Shown: positions 30,921 through 55,834 of the stretch, one piece after another
Position numbering within the stretch: position 1 is the first letter of the stretch
How the letters are laid out: the number at the start of each line of letters is the position of its first letter
NCBI RefSeq assembly: GCF_035084215.1
Contig: NC_090331.1
Coordinates: forward strand, 55,366,001-55,430,000
Source: Heptranchias perlo
Taxonomy: Eukaryota
DNA length: 64,000 nucleotides
Reading direction: 5' to 3'
Program-made: the position numbers and the translations under genes
Notes under the pieces: generated by a model
The model's database searches: none
Told to the model about the DNA's origin: nothing
What the model saw: the letters and a program-made list of their open reading frames with translations, nothing else

Positions 30921-31502
30921 TCACGACACTTTTGCCTTATGCTTCCTACTGCACATATGTGATGCATGCCCTGTGGCTGCAGCACAGGTAGTGGCAGGTT
31001 GAGTGAGGCTGACCGTGAAAGAGATGCATGAGAGGGTGAGTATGAGATAGAGCCATAAGATTGTATGAGGATTGGGTTGAGTGGTAGTGGTGAGATGAGT
31101 ACTGGCGAGGTGAGTAAGTGCAGGTAAAATGAGGATGAGCTTTGAGTGGGTGTGAGAGGTGATGTGATAGAGTAGTGTTGGCAGTGCAGAAGGAGATGTG
31201 GGGTGGGGGCGGTGATGTGGCAGACGGAGGGGAGGGGAATGAGTAAGTGTACTCACTTTGGCTGACCTACTTAGGTGATTGAAGCACCTCCTGCACTGTA
31301 TGCAGGTGCGCGATATGTTGGTGGTGCTAGTGACCTCCTCTGCCACCTCGAGCCAGGCCTTCTTGGTGGCAGAGGCAGGCCGCTTCCTCCCGCATGCCGG
31401 GGGGAAGATCTCTGTCATCCCCCTCCTCCTCACCCCATCCAATGATATCTGGAGTAAGGCATCATTAAACCTGGGAGCAGCCTTCCCCCTGGGCTGCTCC
31501 AT
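30921..31502 (-). CDS. Harbinger Myb/SANT-like (NAIF1/MSANTD-type) DNA-binding ORF; exon 1 fused by deletion to the C-terminal tail
   Basis: PRFNDALLQISLDGV..KKAWLEVAEEVT..RTCIQCRRCFNHL trihelix motif; AAA|GTGAGT donor with exon ending at 31257. Confidence 0.7.
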   Translation of the reverse strand: MEQPRGKAAPRFNDALLQISLDGVRRRGMTEIFPPACGRKRPASATKKAWLEVAEEVTSTTNISRTCIQCRRCFNHLSRSAKVSTLTHSPPLRLPHHRPHPTSPSALPTLLYHITSHTHSKLILILPALTHLASTHLTTTTQPNPHTILWLYLILTLSCISFTVSLTQPATTCAAATGHASHMCSRKHKAKVS

Positions 31503-32444
31503 GCTGTAATTTTTCCTAGTTTCTGCAGCCTCAGTCAGTGGAGGACTGCCCCTTTAAATAGAGCTCCTCCAGCTGACGGACCTTTCTGCGCATGCGCAGT
31601 CCGCCCACCGCGCAGCTTACCAGCGGGAAACCCGGAAGCACAGGTAAGTGGCTCCAATTAGCCTGCGATTCCGTGCGGAGCACACTGATTTCACCGGGCG
31701 CGTTACCCACGCGCCCAGTCGACCCCCCGCTGAGAACCCGCCACCCTGCTAATATCGAGCCCATTATTGGAGTTGGAAAGTTCTTGGGTGTTACTTCTGT
31801 AGGGGTATTCAACACTACCACTAGGTGATGGAGTTTATGTGAACCATAATGGACTGGGGTTACGTGTTGAACAGGCTACTTTAAATTATTCCATCAAATC
31901 CTAAAATTGATTTCCCTTAGTTTGGCACCTTGTTGCGAACAGAATGCACATATTTAATTATGTTTAAACTGTTTACTTTGTTTCTCAAGTAATTGAATAA
32001 GGGCTGGTTTGCAGACTTTAAGTTCCTCTGCTGTTTAGTGGCCACATCTTCAAAATGTTCAGGGACCCAGAGCTCTCACTACTACACACTTGAAAGTGGA
32101 GTAGAGACACCAAGAATGGAATTGATGTGACTAATTAGATCATCTTAAAGGATTGCAGATTAAGAGTAAATTAACAATAAGGTCAGCATATTTAATTGGT
32201 TCAGAGGCTAGTTTAGGGATTGACTTTCTGATTCTACAAGTCTAAGTTTTAGTTCCAATTTTGTGAAAGATTGATAGTTGGTTAATTAAGCTAGAAACAG
32301 TATTGTATTTATGGCATGAACTTATAGTCTTAATGTTTCATATTTGTTGATGTTAAGTGTTACAGTTATTGTTTGTCTCTCAACAGTTTGGGTTACCATA
32401 TTTAATGTATGAAGTTTGAACAAATTCATCTACAAATCCCTAAC

Positions 32445-42563: not shown

Positions 42564-43260
42564 TGTGTAGTACACACATGCAGATCTATTTGGAAATGAA
42601 GATAAATCACGTCTACTCCAGCATTCTTCATTATAATACAACAGAAAGTGGTACCCACTGCTGACATTATGCAAAGATTTACTATTCTACAAAGCAATAT
42701 GTTGGTATATTTTATATTATCAAGCCTGCAAGAACGATCCAATTAAGAAAAGGGTATGGCTGGCTCATTATGTCTCTACTAAAATTCAGCATTGGTAATC
42801 TATTACAGTCCCTGTTTTCCAACATAGACAAGCAGATAAACAAAAATGCTGCCTAAAAAGTCACCCTTAGATCACACAATGGTGGAATCCTTGGCTCTGC
42901 AATCATTATAAATGACATACAAAAAGAACACACACTCTTCCATTATTCATGTAAAATCATTCCTGCTCACACTGAGCACTTTGTGAATGACACAGTAAAT
43001 CTTCACACCTTATAAAAACGTCTTCCCATTGGTATTGCTTGGAACGAGCTAACAGATATCCAGTATGTTTTCATAATCAAAGCTGAGAAATACACCCTGA
43101 TAAGCTGTGTATTTGTGATGTGATGGCTGCTATAGAAATATTTACATTGACTGTTGCTAATTCAGAAACATTTTTGTCTAAATATCATTATTTAAAGGGA
43201 TCATGTTACAATATTATTAACATTAACAATACTTAGCCCTTTCTATAACTGAATCAGGAT

Positions 43261-43365
43261 TTCATTTTCACATCGTTCACCTGACGAAGGAGGTAGCCTC
43301 CGAAAGCTTGTGAATTTAAAATAAAATTGCTGGACTATAACTTGGTGTTGTAAAATTGTTTACAA
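43261..43365 (+). mobile_element. 105-bp Penelope-terminus-like mini insertion
   Basis: Exact 11-bp TSD TGAATCAGGAT (43250-43260 and 43366-43376); contains a hammerhead core followed by AATAAA. Confidence 0.8.
43275..43315 (+). ncRNA. minimal type I hammerhead ribozyme
   Basis: (G)UUCAC-CUGACGA-A-GGAGG-UAG-CCUCC-GAAA-GC-UU-GUGAA(U): stem I, conserved core, stem II, and palindromic AAGCUU in place of stem III. Confidence 0.8.
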
Positions 43366-43469
43366 TGAATCAGGATCAGTAGCATTCACTTTACTAAGGG
43401 TAGACAAAAACAGTTTTAAAAAAAATACGATTGGTGTCAATATTTCTGCACTATCCTTTTCAAATTGCT

Positions 43470-43640
43470 TATAGAATAATAGAATTTTACAGCAGAGGGA
43501 GGCCATTCGGCCCATTGTGAGTGTGCTGGCTCTTTGTAACCAGCAATTCACATTGTCCTATCTCCCCATTCTTTCCCCATACCCTTTAAAACTTTTATTT
43601 TACAAATATTTATCCACTTCCTTTTTCAAAGCTAGAATGG
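43470..43640 (-). mobile_element. CR1 3' UTR fragment
   Basis: ATAGAATAATAGAA..GGAGGCCATTCGGCCCAT is the reverse-complemented CR1 tail. Confidence 0.7.
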
Positions 43641-43859
43641 GAAGCTAATATCAAATTTATACATCAAAAATTAAGCAGCTGTTTAATTTATATATATTTA
43701 GGAGGATCTTTAGCAGCTCAATCAACAAATAGTTTGTTTATACAAAAATATATTGTTCGTCAAAAAAATAAGAAATAATCACATTAATTTCAACAGATGA
43801 CAGTGTGCTTTTATTTTCGACAGCAATAGGAAGGATGCTGAGGTGGCTATGACAGAAGA

Positions 43860-45748
43860 GCTATAGACAGAGCTAAGCGATTCCACAACCAACGGATCAG
43901 ATCAAAGCTCTGCAGTCCTGCCACATCCAGTCGTGAATGGTGGTGGACAATTAAACAACTAACGGGAGGAGGAGGCTCTACAAACATCCCCATCCTCAAT
44001 GATGACAGAGTCCAGCACATGAGTGCAAAAGACAAGGCTGAAGCGTTTGCAACCATCTTCAGCCAGAAGTGCCGAGTGGATGATCCATCTCGGCCTCCTC
44101 CCGATATCCCGACCATCACAGAAGCCAGTCTTCAGCCAATTCGATTCACTCCACGTGATATCAAGAAACGGCTGAGTGCACTGGATACAGCAAAGGCTAT
44201 GGGCCCCGACAACATCCCAGCTGTAGTGCTGAAGACTTGTGCTCCAGAACTAGCTGCGCCTCTAGCCAAGCTGTTCCAGTACAGCTACAACACTGGCATC
44301 TACCCGACAGTGTGGAAAATTGCCCAGGTATGTCCTGTCCACAAAAAGCAGGACAAATCCAATCCGGTCAATTACCGCCCCATCAGTTTACTCTCAATCA
44401 TCAGCAAAGTGATGGAAGGTGTAGTCGACAGTGCTATCAAGCAGCACTTACTCACCAATAACCTGCTCACCGATGCTCAGTTTGGGTTCCGCCAGGACCA
44501 CTTGGCTCCAGACCTCATTACAGCCTTGGTCCAAACATGGACAAAAGAGCTGAATTCCAGAGGTGAGGTGAGTGTGACTGCCCTTGACATCAAGGCAGCA
44601 TTTGACCGAGTGTGGCACCAAGGAGCCCTAGTAAAATTGAAGTCAATGGGAATCAGGGGGAAAACTCTCCAGTGGCTGGAGTCATACCTAGCGCAAAGGA
44701 AGATGGTAGTGGTTGTTGGAGGCCAATCATCTCAGCCCCAGGACATTGCTGCAGGAGTTCCTCAAGGCAGTGTCCTAGGCCCAACCATCTTCAGCTGCTT
44801 CATCAATGACCTTCCCTCCATCATAAGGTCAGAAATGGGGATGTTCGCTGATGATTGCACAGTGTTCAGTTCCATTTGCAACCCCTCAAATAATGAAGCA
44901 GTCCGATCCCGCATGCAGCAAGACCTGGACAACATCCAGGCTTGGGCTCATAAGTGGCAAGTAACATTCGCACCAGACAAGTGCCAGGCAATGACCATCT
45001 CCAACAAGAGAGAGTCTAACCACCTCCCCTTGACATTCAACGGCATTACCATCACCGAATCCCCCACCATCAACATCCTCGGGGTCACCATTGACCAGAA
45101 ACTTAACTGGACCAGCCATATAAATACTGTGGCTACAAGAGCAGGTCAGAGGCTAGGTATTCTACGGCGAGTAACTCACCTCCTGACTCCCCAAAGCCTT
45201 TCCACCATCTACAAGGCACAAGTCAGGAGTGTGATGGAATACTCTCCACTTGCTTGGATGAGTGCAGCTCCAACAACACTCAAGAAGCTCGACACCATCC
45301 AAGATAAAGCAGCCCGCTTGATTGGCACCCCATCCACCACCCTTAACATTCACTCCCTTCACCACCGGCGCACTGTAGCTGCAGTGTGTACCATCCACAG
45401 GATGCACTGCAGCAACTCGTCAAGGCTTCTTCGACAGCACCTCCCAAACCCGCGACCTCTACCACCTAGAAGGACAAGAGCAGCAGGCACATGGGAACAA
45501 CACCACCTGCACGTTCCCCTCCAAGTCACACACCATCCCGACTTGGAAATATATCGCCGTTCCTTCATCGTCGCTGGGTCAAAATCCTGGAACTCCCTTC
45601 CTAACAGCACTGTGGGAGAACCGTCACCACACGGACTGCAGCGGTTCAAGAAGGCGGCTCACCACCAGCTTCTCAAGGGCAATTAGGGATGGACAATAAA
45701 TGCTGGACTCGCCAGCGACGCCCACATCCCATGAACGAATAAAAAAAA
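43860..45748 (+). mobile_element. young 5'-truncated CR1-superfamily LINE (distinct from canonical vertebrate CR1)
   Basis: Uninterrupted frame 43860-45686, short 3' UTR with AATAAA and A-tail, possible AAGAG TSD, no APE domain. Confidence 0.93.
44019..45686 (+). CDS. non-LTR retrotransposon reverse transcriptase (ORF2 C-terminal part)
   Basis: [66 protein letters not shown]. Confidence 0.93.
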   Translation: MSAKDKAEAFATIFSQKCRVDDPSRPPPDIPTITEASLQPIRFTPRDIKKRLSALDTAKAMGPDNIPAVVLKTCAPELAAPLAKLFQYSYNTGIYPTVWKIAQVCPVHKKQDKSNPVNYRPISLLSIISKVMEGVVDSAIKQHLLTNNLLTDAQFGFRQDHLAPDLITALVQTWTKELNSRGEVSVTALDIKAAFDRVWHQGALVKLKSMGIRGKTLQWLESYLAQRKMVVVVGGQSSQPQDIAAGVPQGSVLGPTIFSCFINDLPSIIRSEMGMFADDCTVFSSICNPSNNEAVRSRMQQDLDNIQAWAHKWQVTFAPDKCQAMTISNKRESNHLPLTFNGITITESPTINILGVTIDQKLNWTSHINTVATRAGQRLGILRRVTHLLTPQSLSTIYKAQVRSVMEYSPLAWMSAAPTTLKKLDTIQDKAARLIGTPSTTLNIHSLHHRRTVAAVCTIHRMHCSNSSRLLRQHLPNPRPLPPRRTRAAGTWEQHHLHVPLQVTHHPDLEIYRRSFIVAGSKSWNSLPNSTVGEPSPHGLQRFKKAAHHQLLKGN

Positions 45749-47792: not shown

Positions 47793-50245
47793 TCACAAAT
47801 CCTTCGCCTTACGTTTGCAAGAACCCCTACGTGGTGCTACCCCTGTGGCTTCAGCAGAGGTAGTGGCAGGTTGCTCTTGTCCATGCCCTAACCGATGAGA
47901 TGCTTTGCGCGGATACCCTCTGGGTTTCGGTGCCCATGAGGGCCCATCCAAAGACTGCTCCACCTGCACCTGTGCAGGGGCAGACTCGGTCACCTGGAGA
48001 GGCGGCAGCATTGCGGGTACTGGTTGAGAGGGGGGCAACGGGTGAGACGTGGGAGCACTTTGAGTGGCGTCCCCACTTCCATGTCCCCTTTCACCATCCC
48101 TCTCTTGGCCCAGGCCCACATCACTCCTTCCACCCAGCTGGACGACAGTTTGGAGAACTTGTGTGAAGCCTTGGAAGGCCAGTTGTAAGGTATCTGTCAG
48201 CCTGTTTAAGGCGGCAGAATGTTGCTCACCCTGAATCCGAACAGTTGTTGTCAGGGCCTGAATGGACTCATTGTTGAGCCGTGCTTGACGATGGAGGCTA
48301 GCCTTTCCTCCATCGCAGACATTCCCGCACCTACCTGCGAAACTATCTCAGAGATGCCTTCACGTCCCTGTGACAGTATTCCACTCGTGCAGGAGTTGGA
48401 CTCCTCCATTCTCTGCGTGATTGTGGAGAGTGTGCGTGGCAACTGTTCCAGTACCTCGGCAATGTGCTGCTGCCCCTCGATGACTCTCCTTTTCACGGCT
48501 GGCCCCCAGGGTTCAGCATCTGGGTCCAGCTGAGCAGAGCCTGGAGAAGAGTGCTCCCACCGACGCGGACTCTCCACAGCTGCCCCTGCCACCAGGGTCT
48601 GCTCGTGCTCACATGTGCGTGGTGACTCACCATGTGCAAGCCCAACTAAGTGTGGAAAACCATAAAGAAATGCCTGACCAAATTAACTTTCTAATACACC
48701 TAAACCATAAAGCTGACCATATTAATTTCCTAATACCCTTAAAACCAAAAAAAAAGAAGCAAAGCATGATGGATAAGTTGACCATGTTAGCTGACCAGCT
48801 GAATATAATAGAAAGCTTATGTTCTAGTTCTCACCAAAGACACACAGAAGAGCTATTGTCTGCTTATGAGATAACTGTCTGACTAACAGAAATGAATGAC
48901 CATATAGCCTTGAGACTAGGTACAGACCCACTGATAAGAAAAACTGTTACTAAGGAAACGTGCTTTCCCAGACTTTGTTTAAAGAATCACGAGGCAGTCA
49001 TGAGGAACCAGAGGGTGGGTTCCCTATTTTGATTGACTAACCACTTGAACTAATAAAGAATGTACATGTACGCCCATATTCTATGATAGACAGACATTAC
49101 TAATTAAACTGTATAAATATGCACTGTCTTCCTATGTACAGTGAAGAGGTTGTTCTAACCATTGTTTTAGACACCCTTCCCTTGAGCTCAAGTTTCTTTT
49201 AATTAAAATTCTTACTTGTCTGAAAATAAGTGTTTGGAGTTAATGCATTGTGTATAATAGGTAATTAAGTTTTCGACATAAGTGAGGACGGGGTCCCACC
49301 GAGGTGTGTATATCTGCGCTGGTGGATGGCTGGCTCAGATGTGATGATGGACCCTCAGAGGCTGGCAGGTCCTCTGAGGAATTGCTCTCCGCAGTCACGG
49401 CGGTTGCAGATGGCCCTGCAAGAGAACAGAAAGCAATATTAAGCATGTGGACAGATATTGAGGTGCTGCAGATGCCAAGTGATGCTAAGATCATTCGCTA
49501 TCATGAGTGCTGAGTGTTAGATTTCTGTCACCAGCCGCTCGTGCACTCCCAGTCTCGGCGTCCGCCACGGACAGGCACTCCAGCGTCCGGCTTATTTCGA
49601 GTGCCTGCTGCTCCGCATCTGTTAAGGCCACCTGGGGTGGTGGGCCCCCTCCGGTCCTTGCCCTCTCCCGAGCATTCTGACATCTCTTCTCCTATCAAGG
49701 CAAAACACAGAGGTGTGATTGAGTGATGGTTGCATGGTGACCCACTGCATGCATTGATGTGGGTGGGGGTGAGCGTGAGGGAGATGCATGGGAGGGTGCG
49801 TGTGAGACATAGCCATGAGATTGTATGAGGATTGGATTGCGTGATAGTGTTCAAATGGGAACTGGGGCGATCAGTAAGTGCAGGCAAGGTGAGGATGATG
49901 GTTGAGTGGATGTGAGGAGTGATGCGAGGGCGTTGTGGTGGCAGTGCAGAAGGAGTTGTGTGGTGGTGGAGGTAATGTGGAAAACGGAGTGTGCGAGAAT
50001 GCGTACCAGGCTGACCTGGTTAGGTCATTAAATCTCTTCCTGCATTGCACCCAGGTTCTGGACACATTGCCGCTGCTGGTGACCTCCTCGGCCACCTCCA
50101 GCCAGGCCTTCCTGGTGGTGGAGGGAGGACACTTCCTCCCATCCGATGGGGAAAAAATTTCCCTCCTACTCCTCACCCCATCGAGCAACACCTGGAGTGA
50201 GGAGTCAGAGAACCTTGGAGCAGCCTTGCCTCTGGCCTGCTCCAT
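47793..50245 (-). pseudogene. three-exon Harbinger Myb/SANT-like gene, disrupted
   Basis: Exon 1 50245 to ~50007 (Myb; donor damaged or out of phase). Exon 2 49691-49532 (EKRCQNARERARTGGG). Exon 3 49415-47793, split by a solo LTR and a frameshift. Confidence 0.75.
48651..49278 (+). mobile_element. solo LTR (Gypsy/ERV type)
   Basis: TGTGGAAAAC ... GTTTTCGACA (9/10 inverted match), exact TAAG 4-bp TSD, TATAAAT at ~49112, ATTAAA at ~49202. Confidence 0.88.
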
Positions 50246-50550
50246 GCTCTTAAATTGGTTGTTTGCTGCAGGAGGAGCATTGGAGGACTGCCCCTTTAAA
50301 TAGGGCTCCTCCTGCTGACAGCCTGTGATGCGGGTGCACAGTGCGCCCGTTGCGCAGGTCTAGAACGGGAAACCCGGAAGCGAAGGTAAGTGCCTTCAAT
50401 TAGGCTGCGATCGGGTGCGGAGAATCCCGCATTCACTGGGCGCGTTACCCATGCGCCCAGTCGACCCCCCGCTGCCAACCCGCCTCCCTCCTATTATCGA
50501 GCCCTATGAATTAAACCTGGGTCCTCCTAGTTTCAGATTTGGCTCATCCA

Positions 50551-52378: not shown

Positions 52379-55300
52379 ACAAACAAACGAACATACGAAT
52401 TAAGAGCAGGAGTAGACCATTCGGCCCCTTGAGCCTGTTCTGCCATTTGATAAGATCATGGCTGATCTGATTGTGACCTCAACCCTACTTTCCCATCTAC
52501 CTACTATAATCGTTGACTCCCTTGTTAATCAAGAATCTATCTAACTCAGCCTTAAAAATATTCAATGACCCTGCCTCCACTGCTCACTGGGAAAGGGAGT
52601 TCCAAAGACTCATGACCCTCTGAGAGAAAACATTTCTCCTCATCTCCATCTTAAATGGGAGACCCCTTATTTTTAAACTGTTGCCCCTAGTTCTAGTCTC
52701 TCCCACAAGGGGAAACATCCTCTCACCATCTACCCCTTCTAGTCCCCTCAGGATCTTACATGTTTCAATAAGATCACTTCTCATTCTTCTAAACTCCAAT
52801 GTATACAGGCCCAACTTGTCCGACCTTTCCTCATAAGATAACCCCCTCATCCCAGGAATCAGTCGAGTGAACCTTCTCTGAACCGCCTCTAAAGCAATTA
52901 TGTCCTTTCTTAAATAAGAAGACCAAAACTGCACACAGTATTCTAGATGTGGCCTCACCAATGCCCTGTACAACTGTAGCAAAACATCTTTACTTTTATA
53001 TTCCATTCCCCTTGCAATAAATGGCAACATTCCATTTGCCTTCCTAATCACTTGCTGTACCTGCATACTAACTTTTTGTGATTCATGTACTAGGACACCC
53101 AGATCCCTCTGTACCTCAGAGTTCTGCAATCTCTCTCCATTTAAATAATGTACTGCTTTTCTATTCCTCCTGCCAAAGTGGACAAGTTCACATTTTCCCA
53201 CATTATACTCCATCTGCCAAATTTTTGCCCACTCGCTTAACCTATCTATATCCCTTTGCAGACTTCTTATGTCCTCTTCACAATTTACTTTCCTACCTGC
53301 TGTGTGCAGTTTTGGTCTCCTTATTTAAGAAAGGACATAATTGCTTTAGAGGCGGTTCAGAGAAGGTTCACTCAACTGATTCCTGGGATGAGAGGGTTAT
53401 CATATGAGGAAAGGGTGGACAAGTTGGGCCTGTATACACTGGAGTTTCGAAGAATGAGAGGTGATCTTATTGAAACATATAAGATCCTGAGGGGACTAGA
53501 AGGGGTAGATGCTGAGAGGATGTTTCCCCTTGTGGGACAGACTAGAACTAGGGGCCACACTTTAAAAATAAGGTGTCTCCTATTTAAGACGGAGATGAGG
53601 AGAAATTTTTTTGCTGATGACAACTTTGTGTCATCAGCAAATTTAGCAACCATACATTCGGTCCCTTCATCCAAGTCATTGATATAGATTGTAAATAGTT
53701 GAGGCCCAAGCACTGATCCCTGTGGCACTCCACTCATTACATCTTGCCAACCTGAAAATGACCCATTCATGCCTACTCTCTGTTTCCTGTTAGCTATCCA
53801 ATCCTTTATCCATGCTAATATGTTACTCCATACATCATGAGCTCTTATTTTGTGTAGTAGCCTTTGATGTGGCACCTTGTCAAAAGCCTTCTGGAAATCC
53901 AAGTACACCATATCCACAGGATCCCCTTTATCCACGTTGCTTGTTACTTCCTCAAAGAACTCTAATAAATTAGTCAAACACGATTTCCCTTTCAGAAAGC
54001 CGTGTTGACTCTGCCTGATTGCATTGAGATTTTCTAAGTGCCCTGCTATAATCTCCTTAATAATAGATTCTAGCATTTTCCCTATGGCAGATGTTAAGCT
54101 AACTGGCCTGTAGTTTCCTGCTTTCTGTCTCCCTCCTTTCTTGAATAGAGGAGTTACATTCGCTATTTTCCAATCTAATGGGACCCTTCCAGAATCTAGG
54201 GAATTTTGGAAAATTAATACCAATGCATCTACTATCTCTGCAGCCACTTCTTTTAAGGTCCTAGGATGAAGTCCGTCAGGACCTGGGGACTTGTCAGCTT
54301 TTAGTTCTAATATTTTTTTCAGAACACTTTCCCTGGTGATTGTAAATGTTTTAAGTTCCTCCCTCCCTTTCACCTCTTCATTCACAATTATTTCTGGCAT
54401 GTTATTTGTATCCTCTACAGTGAAGACGGACGCAAAATATCTGTTCAATTCATCCGCCATTTCCTTATTCTCCATTATTAATTCCCCAGACTCACTCTCT
54501 AGAGGACCAACGCTCACTTTATTTACTCTTTTCCTTTTTAAAAACCTGTAGAAACTCTTACTATCTGTTTTTATATTTCTAGCTAGCTTTCTCTCGTACT
54601 CTGATTTCTCTCTCCTTATTATTCTTTTAGTCATTCTTTGCTGTTTTTTATATTCTGTCCAATCTTCTGACCTGCCACTAATCTTCGCAGAATTGTATGC
54701 TTCTTCTTTCAATTTGATACTGTTTTTAACTTCCTTAGTGAGCCACAGGTGGCACATCCTTCCCCTAGAGTCTTTCTCACTGGAATGTATCTTTGCTGAG
54801 TGTTATGAAATATCTCATTAAATGTCTACCACTGCATCTCTACTGACATATCCCTTAACCTAAGTTCCCAGTTCACTTTAGCCAGCTCTGTCTTCATGCC
54901 CTCATAATTGCCCTTATTTAAGTTTAAAACACTAGTCTAAGTCTTACTGTTCTCTCCCTCAAACTGAATGCGAAATTCAATCATATTGTGATCACTGCTA
55001 CCTAGAGGCTCCTTTACAATGAGGTCATTAATTAATCCTGTCTCATTACACTTTACCAAATCTAGAATAGCCTGCTCTCTGGCTCTAGAACGTGCTGCTC
55101 TAAGAAACTGTTCTGAAAGCACTCTATGAACTCATCTTCCAGGCTACCTTTGCGAATCAGATTCCTCCAATCTATAAGTAGATTAAAATCACCCATGATT
55201 ATCACTGTTCCTTTCTCACAAGCCCCCATTATTTCTTCCTGTATACCCTGTCCTACAGTGTGGTTACTGTTATTACTGTTATGGGGCCTATAAACTACTC

Positions 55301-55834
55301 CCACAAGTGACTTCTTGCCTTTACTATTTCTTATCTCTACCCAAACTGATTCTACATCTTGGTCTTTAGAACGAAGGTCATTTCTTTCTATTATACTCAT
55401 GTCATCCTTAATTAACAAAGCTACCCCTCCACCTTTTCCTAGCTTCCTATCCTTCCGAAATGTCAAGTGCCCTTGAATATTCAGGTTCCAGCCTTTGTCA
55501 TCTTGCAGCCATGTCTCTGTAATGGCTATCAGATCGCACATATTTATTTCTATTTGAGCTGTCAATTCATCCATTTTGTTACAAATGCTACGCGCATTCA
55601 GATACAAAGCCTTTAGTGCTGTCTTTTTAGTATTTTTGCAACCTCTAGCCTTATCTGCTGGCGCACTCTTAAGTTTGCATGCTCTGTCCCTTCCTGCCAC
55701 TCTCTGATTATCATTTCCCTTATTGCTACCTTGCTCTCTTGCCTTGTCTTCTTTCTTTAATTTATCACATCTTCCCTTACATGATCCCTTGCCCCCACTA
55801 TTTAGTTTAAAGCCCTCTCTTCCGCCCTACCGCA
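52379..55834 (-). mobile_element. 5'-truncated CR1 LINE (ORF2 APE+RT pseudogene)
   Basis: [84 protein letters not shown]; frameshifts; CR1 3' UTR at 52380-52500. Confidence 0.95.
53299..53622 (+). repeat. inverted copy of the CR1 ORF2 3' segment inserted inside the same CR1
   Basis: Plus-strand CVQFWSPYLRKD..EMRRNFF mirrors minus-strand 52630-52940; 13-bp hairpin at the right junction. Confidence 0.9.

Follow-up and report, generated by a model that had tools for sequence, protein, structure and literature searches.

A hammerhead-bearing short insertion in Heptranchias perlo, probably a solo end-piece of an autonomous Penelope-like retrotransposon

The window analysed here, a 64,000-nucleotide stretch of the Heptranchias perlo genome, carries a minimal hammerhead motif between two copies of a short direct repeat, and raises the question of whether such a unit moves in its own right or is a fragment of something larger. 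The first-pass annotation had offered both answers, an extremely short Penelope-like insertion or a tiny retrozyme-like family. The results of the current study make it very probable that the insert represents the tail-less terminal 111 bp of an autonomous Penelope-like element (PLE), present as a solo piece and likely inserted by the reverse transcriptase (RT) and GIY-YIG endonuclease of that element. The hammerhead would then have come along from the parent as a passenger, and a lone copy of it is predicted to lack activity. As a locus, the insertion is unremarkable, one short copy from a Penelope-like family that is very abundant and was recently active; any wider interest may lie in the population of short copies.

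All features of the insertion are given for the + strand. The exact 11-bp target-site duplication claimed earlier is borne out at 43250-43260 and 43366-43376, and is the sole direct-repeat family in 43100-43500; two random 31-nt zones spaced 116 bp apart shared an exact 11-mer in 12 of 20,000 draws. The last five bases of the left duplication (43256-43260) and the first base of the right one match the element as well, so that the junctions carry microhomology and the annotated insert length is a minimum: the duplication does flank 105 bp, but the element-derived stretch covers 43256-43366, i.e. 111 bp. This stretch is the 3' part of a subfamily A pseudo-LTR, and runs from +22, counted from the TATA box of longer copies, to the tail-less terminus. 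Its 5' end lies at TATA+27, or at +22 if the 5-bp microhomology is counted, slightly upstream of the modal 5' end of short copies; the equivalent of that modal end (TATA+29..33), an initiator-like sequence and the inferred start of transcription, lies at 43263-43267. The insert is the sole copy in the window and is 99.1% identical over 111 bp to the end of a natural copy (L031), whilst another (L002) holds the identical 111-mer and three TATA-bearing long copies (L233-L235) differ from it by 1-4 mismatches. No empty allele was seen among the 15 joints listed, of 55, in the run of the assembled sample. One contig from run X6 of a relative, organism C, follows the left flank as far as 43258 and then continues into other sequence; absence of the insertion from this relative is only suggested, because the right flank was not recovered.

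Two very high-depth, SINE-like short repeats, also present in the runs of organisms B and C, occupy 43480-43650, and LINE-type ORFs lie at 43842-45686 (+), 53372-54802 (-) and 55062-55826 (-), with RVT_1 (E 2.4e-38 and 9.2e-27) and Exo_endo_phos (E 6.8e-8) domains. Myb/SANT-like domains, which are typical of Harbinger-type DNA transposons, were found at 49871-50359 (-) and 30921-31553 (-), with E values of 2.5e-9 and 7e-4. No host gene was found in the window, as all 43 ORFs of at least 110 codons carry transposon-type domains or nothing, in a search that short exons escape.

The sequence, the minimum free energy (MFE) fold and pairing kept across variants identify a minimal type-I hammerhead at 43276-43314. 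It consists of stem I (43276-80/43310-14), the core CUGACGA (43281-87), stem II (43289-93/43297-301) and GAAA (43302-05), and is completed by the palindromic AGCU at 43305-43308, a putative intermolecular stem III, with cleavage predicted after U43309 (CUU triplet, 43307-43309). An AATAAA at 43320-43325, with a GT-rich run about 17 nt downstream, is a predicted, possible polyadenylation signal of the element. The parts listed in the first-pass annotation, from stem I through core, stem II, GAAA, palindrome and cut to AATAAA, are all present in the sequence, and its layout of stems and core stands, except that it omitted the bulged, unpaired A43288 between core and stem II. Both stems form in the MFE fold, with z scores of -2.4 for a 56-nt piece, -2.8 for a 40-nt piece and -1.07 for the whole 127 nt. 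In a search of the window against Rfam, no hammerhead family reached its gathering score, nor was one among the four weak matches up to E 10, and the bare core pattern was not above chance in the window (9 matches versus 5.94 +/- 2.90). The case for the hammerhead rests on copy number, location within the element and structure-compatible variation. Stem pairing is kept in 95.9% of 220 cells over 22 variants, as against 29-53% in slid controls, with two-sided changes at 3 of 10 stem pairs; the variants were taken from the commonest in the sampled loci and are mutually related, and this conservation is therefore moderate support. The AGCU is invariant in all 22 aligned variants, and all 340 descriptor matches, overlapping loci included, have CUU as the cleavage triplet; U at the cleavage position is a weak choice for hammerhead cleavage. 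Divergent hammerhead relatives with compensated stems were also seen (L066:2609-2712, L189:225-263 and L077:1436-1474), and probably represent older or sister subfamilies.

Since stem III can form only between two molecules, a lone copy has no stem III and is likely unable to cleave. In an unconstrained co-fold of two copies, pairing took place via stem II and not stem III, and the AGCU duplex contributed only -2.5 kcal/mol. Published work on PLE motifs describes no in vitro cleavage by a single motif, low cleavage by dimers and a dimer model, as well as thousands of solo copies per genome and a bulged base before stem II as a known trait (PMC4209133). The background given in the first-pass annotation, of minimal hammerheads with a palindromic stem III acting as dimers, agrees with this source.

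The parent of the insert was sought among its copies. The copy-number search proposed earlier returned tens of thousands of copies, as a 29-mer of the hammerhead has 27,534 exact matches in the 3.25-Gb genome and a 25-mer of the element 3' end has 62,622, with none for either reversed control. The pseudo-LTR is common to the window insert and to full-length masters, and this collinearity with protein-coding masters shows that the Penelope-like option was the right one. Upstream in L031 lies a 611-codon ORF whose RVT_1 match is above the cut-off (E 5.2e-10), whilst the GIY-YIG match of the parent ORF (E 3.9e-4, 21.1 bits) falls just below the Pfam cut-off of 22.6. A subfamily B locus (L102, G000:C1:4460300-4470299) contains head-to-tail units of 3,081 bp with an intact 901-aa ORF encoding RT and GIY-YIG. 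The parent protein has YIDD at aa 531 and GIY-YIG endonuclease motifs with the CCHH residues at aa 789-834, and its Atlas neighbours carry RVT_1 and GIY-YIG. Between the RT and the endonuclease lies a linker motif, C-x4-C-x2-C (aa 752-760); a CX2-5CxxC linker is a mark of Neptune and Nematis and is described as absent in Penelope/Poseidon (PMC8557442). Judged by this motif, the parent appears to be of Neptune/Nematis type. Behind the subfamily A pseudo-LTR, that of the focal copy, one locus (L233) has an 865-codon ORF that is 96.8% identical and stops 37 codons early; no fully intact subfamily A ORF was present among the five loci checked, four of which lack a long ORF from ATG.

Several loci illustrate the arrangement of copies. 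In L102 and L127, tandem and inverted full-length units with intact ORFs lie within a 19-bp minisatellite, and the L102 units match each other at 100% over a minimum of 2,049 bp, which points to activity in the very recent past. Elsewhere (L032:1-4230 oriented, G000:C1128), a satellite array with a 47/94-bp period adjoins a complex inverted insertion of the element.

We examined the population of copies in two samples, both from the first 11 Mb of one contig. For sample 1, the 3'-end 25-mer was used to collect 101 copies from the initial 5 Mb of contig C1, of which 92 were kept after removal of 9 duplicate-junction copies; for sample 2, the hammerhead 29-mer yielded 60 copies between 5.2 and 10.9 Mb, with duplicates retained and the last two listed places left out. 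The 5' ends were placed against panels of natural TATA-bearing copies, 33 for sample 1 (33 of the 101 copies entered by having a TATA box) and 34 for sample 2. An earlier placement against one reference, which gave ends at 87-103 nt, was discarded, as truncation was confounded with subfamily divergence; the top genome matches of a query are biased to the query's own ends and were kept out of the counts. Copies range from about 40 bp to 3 kb. Their 3' ends fall at either of two fixed positions, separated by about 35 nt: a tail-less site, which precedes the start codon by 36 nt, and a second site just at the start codon. Of 22 solo short copies, 10 are accompanied by a target-site duplication of at least 6 nt. 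Exactly one arm carries the tail in 39 of 40 inverted pairs, and the arms are length-concordant: 24 pairs are short/short, 8 long/long, 7 have intermediate ends and 1 is long/short, i.e. one pair joins a long arm to a non-long one where about 13 would be expected. Ten perfectly palindromic insertions with both arms at TATA+30/31 were noted among the first 100 places listed, for example L210/L211, L212/L213, L214/L215 and L220/L221. The two-site 3' ends with their tail, the inverted pairs and the duplications are known PLE traits (PMC8557442, PMC3846280); hammerheads, solo pieces, tails, inverted pairs and target-site duplications of PLEs are already published.

The 5' ends of the copies are a different matter. 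In long copies, a TATA box precedes the tail-less end by 123-131 nt, apart from one subfamily that lacks it. Among the 92 copies of sample 1, 33 ends are upstream or long, 12 lie at +1..28, 18 at +29..33, 20 at +34..56 and 9 beyond; among the 60 of sample 2, the corresponding numbers up to +56 are 14, 7, 18 and 21. The +29..33 bin was chosen on sample 1, and sample 2 serves as an independent replicate. Within +1..+56, the bin holds 18 of 50 ends in sample 1 and 18 of 46 in sample 2 (P 3e-8 versus uniform). Genome-wide in subfamily A, 10,189 copies reach +35, 3,430 reach +26, 2,749 reach +17 and 2,523 reach +8; the +35 pattern (25 nt) is 9 nt shorter than the other three (34 nt), so that part of the 66% drop reflects point mutation and T-run variation. 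Ends preceded by two unmatched bases number 1,462 at +31 and 975 at +30 in this subfamily genome-wide. The distance from the peak to the element end differs between the subfamilies (98-103 nt in A, 93-94 nt in B), which indicates that the peak follows the TATA box and not that end. The first-pass annotation had held that random 5' endpoints would speak against a discrete mini-family; the ends proved to be neither random nor fixed at the focal end, with a peak about 30 nt past the TATA box, a distance that fits the canonical spacing from TATA box to transcription start.

The clustering of 5' ends makes the short copies look discrete, as a non-autonomous mini-element or retrozyme of about 105 bp, transcribed and amplified from its own copies, would be, and animal retrozymes have been proposed to derive from PLE pseudo-LTRs (10.64898/2026.07.22.740005). 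We nevertheless consider such an origin highly unlikely. The short copies lack a TATA box and share their variants with long coding copies, their ends track the TATA box of the masters in two subfamilies, and the 5' end of the focal copy is not the modal one. The tandem repeats seen have a period of about 3.07 kb, and inspection by eye of the sampled copies and genome match listings revealed no head-to-tail array of short units. The tandem array of short hammerhead units by which non-LTR retrozymes are recognised has no counterpart in the window, which holds a single copy. The earlier suggestion of a stand-alone mobile unit therefore finds no support, the unit being collinear with the pseudo-LTR of the masters, its lengths running from about 40 bp to 3 kb and short-unit arrays absent from the copies and listings inspected.

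The hammerhead itself could have shaped the insertions, either through a template of ribozyme-cleaved RNA or as a self-cleavage and polyA cassette within a host transcript. In favour of this, the core and both stems are conserved without disruption, 79 of the 83 sampled copies long enough to score retain AATAAA, and, genome-wide, the 110 ends at the cleavage site outnumber the 36 located 3 nt upstream, a threefold step. Against this, the cleavage site lies within the focal copy, whose own template was therefore uncleaved, and no pile-up was found there in the sampled copies (0 of 101). The 110 ends are no commoner than those 2 nt downstream (153, partly a sequence variant) and far rarer than the ends at +31 in one subfamily; of 20 loci ending at the cleavage site, 3 are stem-I microhomology inversions and 1 is an internal deletion. 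The cassette proposed in the first-pass annotation is likewise unsupported, as a solo copy has no stem III, the window has no host gene among its ORFs of at least 110 codons, and published solo motifs were inert in vitro (PMC4209133). Overall, either role is very improbable for this insertion.

We propose instead that the short copies record the leader of the element's mRNA. From its sequence and its spacing from the TATA box, we infer that TATA+29..33 is the transcription start of the element. The endonuclease would make staggered nicks that give rise to the 11-bp duplication, and the RT would prime within the RNA of the element, at the tail-less site 36 nt before the ATG, and copy backwards. 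With the protein bound at the mRNA leader, the cDNA would extend for about 100 nt (135 with the tail) and then run off the RNA 5' end. Run-off after about 100 nt is probably the source of the many short copies, and on balance we favour the fuller proposal that most of them are complete, strong-stop-like run-off cDNAs of the leader, about 100 or 135 nt from two internal priming sites to the TATA-driven start, integrated alone or as an inverted pair. Long copies would be templated by read-through transcripts of tandem arrays. The focal copy extends a few bases past the modal end; its template was likely a longer RNA or one begun at a minor upstream start, and the copy would have been joined at the 5-bp microhomology. 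In vitro, a PLE protein primes internally at two sites, nicks both strands and yields products whose length is set by the template 5' end; the hammerhead of this Anolis element is protein-assisted in vitro and dispensable for insertion (PMC11167929). Penelope transcripts begin in the upstream pseudo-LTR (PMC2377424), and a putative TATA box and initiator have been noted in rotifer elements (PMC3846280). Points against run-off include the position of the focal copy, which is not at the peak, and the TATA-less promoter of D. virilis Penelope (PMC2377424). Retrovirus-like strand transfer of a short cDNA to the RNA 3' end was also considered and is disfavoured, because independent jumps would give many long/short pairs and 1 of 40 was seen.

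The same element could also produce the +30/31 pile-up if the RT stalled or folded back at an RNA or cDNA hairpin, and not at the RNA 5' end. In read-through RNAs of both subfamilies, the 3' arms of predicted hairpins end at +32 (B) and +33..+38 (A), fold-back too would give length-concordant inverted arms, and at least 20 ends per sample lie at +34..+56. Among 30 loci that end at +30, the solo copies showed no cap-derived extra G, the inverted junctions being confounded by AT microhomology. This explanation is weakened, because, among 21 variants with a TATA box, the hairpins differ in position and topology, with energies of -3.8 to -12.7 kcal/mol in a 61-nt stretch, whilst the peak stays at +30/31, and because the RT traverses the GC-rich stem II, with 1 of 92 ends between +57 and +73. 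The canonical distance from TATA box to start also matches the peak spacing. We therefore regard stalling or fold-back as rather unlikely, and retain run-off from the mRNA leader as the preferred reading.

If run-off is correct, thousands of insertions in the genome preserve the transcription start of the element to the base, the hammerhead has spread to tens of thousands of copies without ribozyme cleavage or a non-autonomous family, and what is called '5' truncation' in PLEs is to some extent an end at a defined position. The findings bear on how PLEs make short, tandem and inverted insertions and on the role of their hammerhead. The sharp 5' boundary, the concordant arms and the scarcity of cleavage-site ends lead to predictions that CAGE and the established in vitro assay could address directly, and intact ORFs of this family could serve in such work. 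The results also call for caution over 'retrozyme monomers', since the solo hammerheads tallied under that name in genomes may have arisen as by-products of the autonomous element. The element type, the ribozyme and the solo pieces are known; no description of the 5'-end pile-up of PLE short copies was found in the accessible literature text searched.

Comparison with known systems places the element among described PLEs. Like the metazoan PLE hammerheads of PMC4209133, the present motif is of type I, without loop 3, with palindromic positions 15.2-16.2, an extra nucleotide between 9 and 10.1 and a G10.1-C11.1 pair, and occurs mostly as solo copies or opposite-strand pairs; in contrast to them, it has the CUU triplet in 340 of 340 matches, a stem II of 5 bp and a higher copy number (27,534 exact 29-mers versus about 2,000-9,000 motifs reported). 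Poseidon PAc of Anolis carolinensis (PMC11167929) resembles the present element in its AT-rich targets, in a tail delimited by two internal sites of RT initiation and in a hammerhead unneeded for insertion. In PAc, however, the ORF starts at stem II and priming occurs 111-118 nt inside the ORF, whereas here neither the hammerhead nor either 3' end lies downstream of the ATG, with U17 92 nt before it; in the text examined, that source reports no genomic 5'-end pile-up. The endonuclease-bearing PLEs of Neptune/Nematis type (PMC8557442) share with the parent element a single ORF with RT followed by GIY-YIG, the GxKF/Y-like, DKG and CCHH residues and the CX2-5CxxC linker, as well as pseudo-LTRs, partial tandems, inverted 5'-truncated arms and a 30-40-bp tail at one end, and differ in that the window site shows no microsatellite targeting. 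Finally, the animal non-LTR retrozymes (10.64898/2026.07.22.740005) are, like the insert, non-coding, hammerhead-bearing and related to PLE pseudo-LTRs, but consist of tandem units with at least two consecutive hammerheads, whereas the window carries a solo copy with a target-site duplication.
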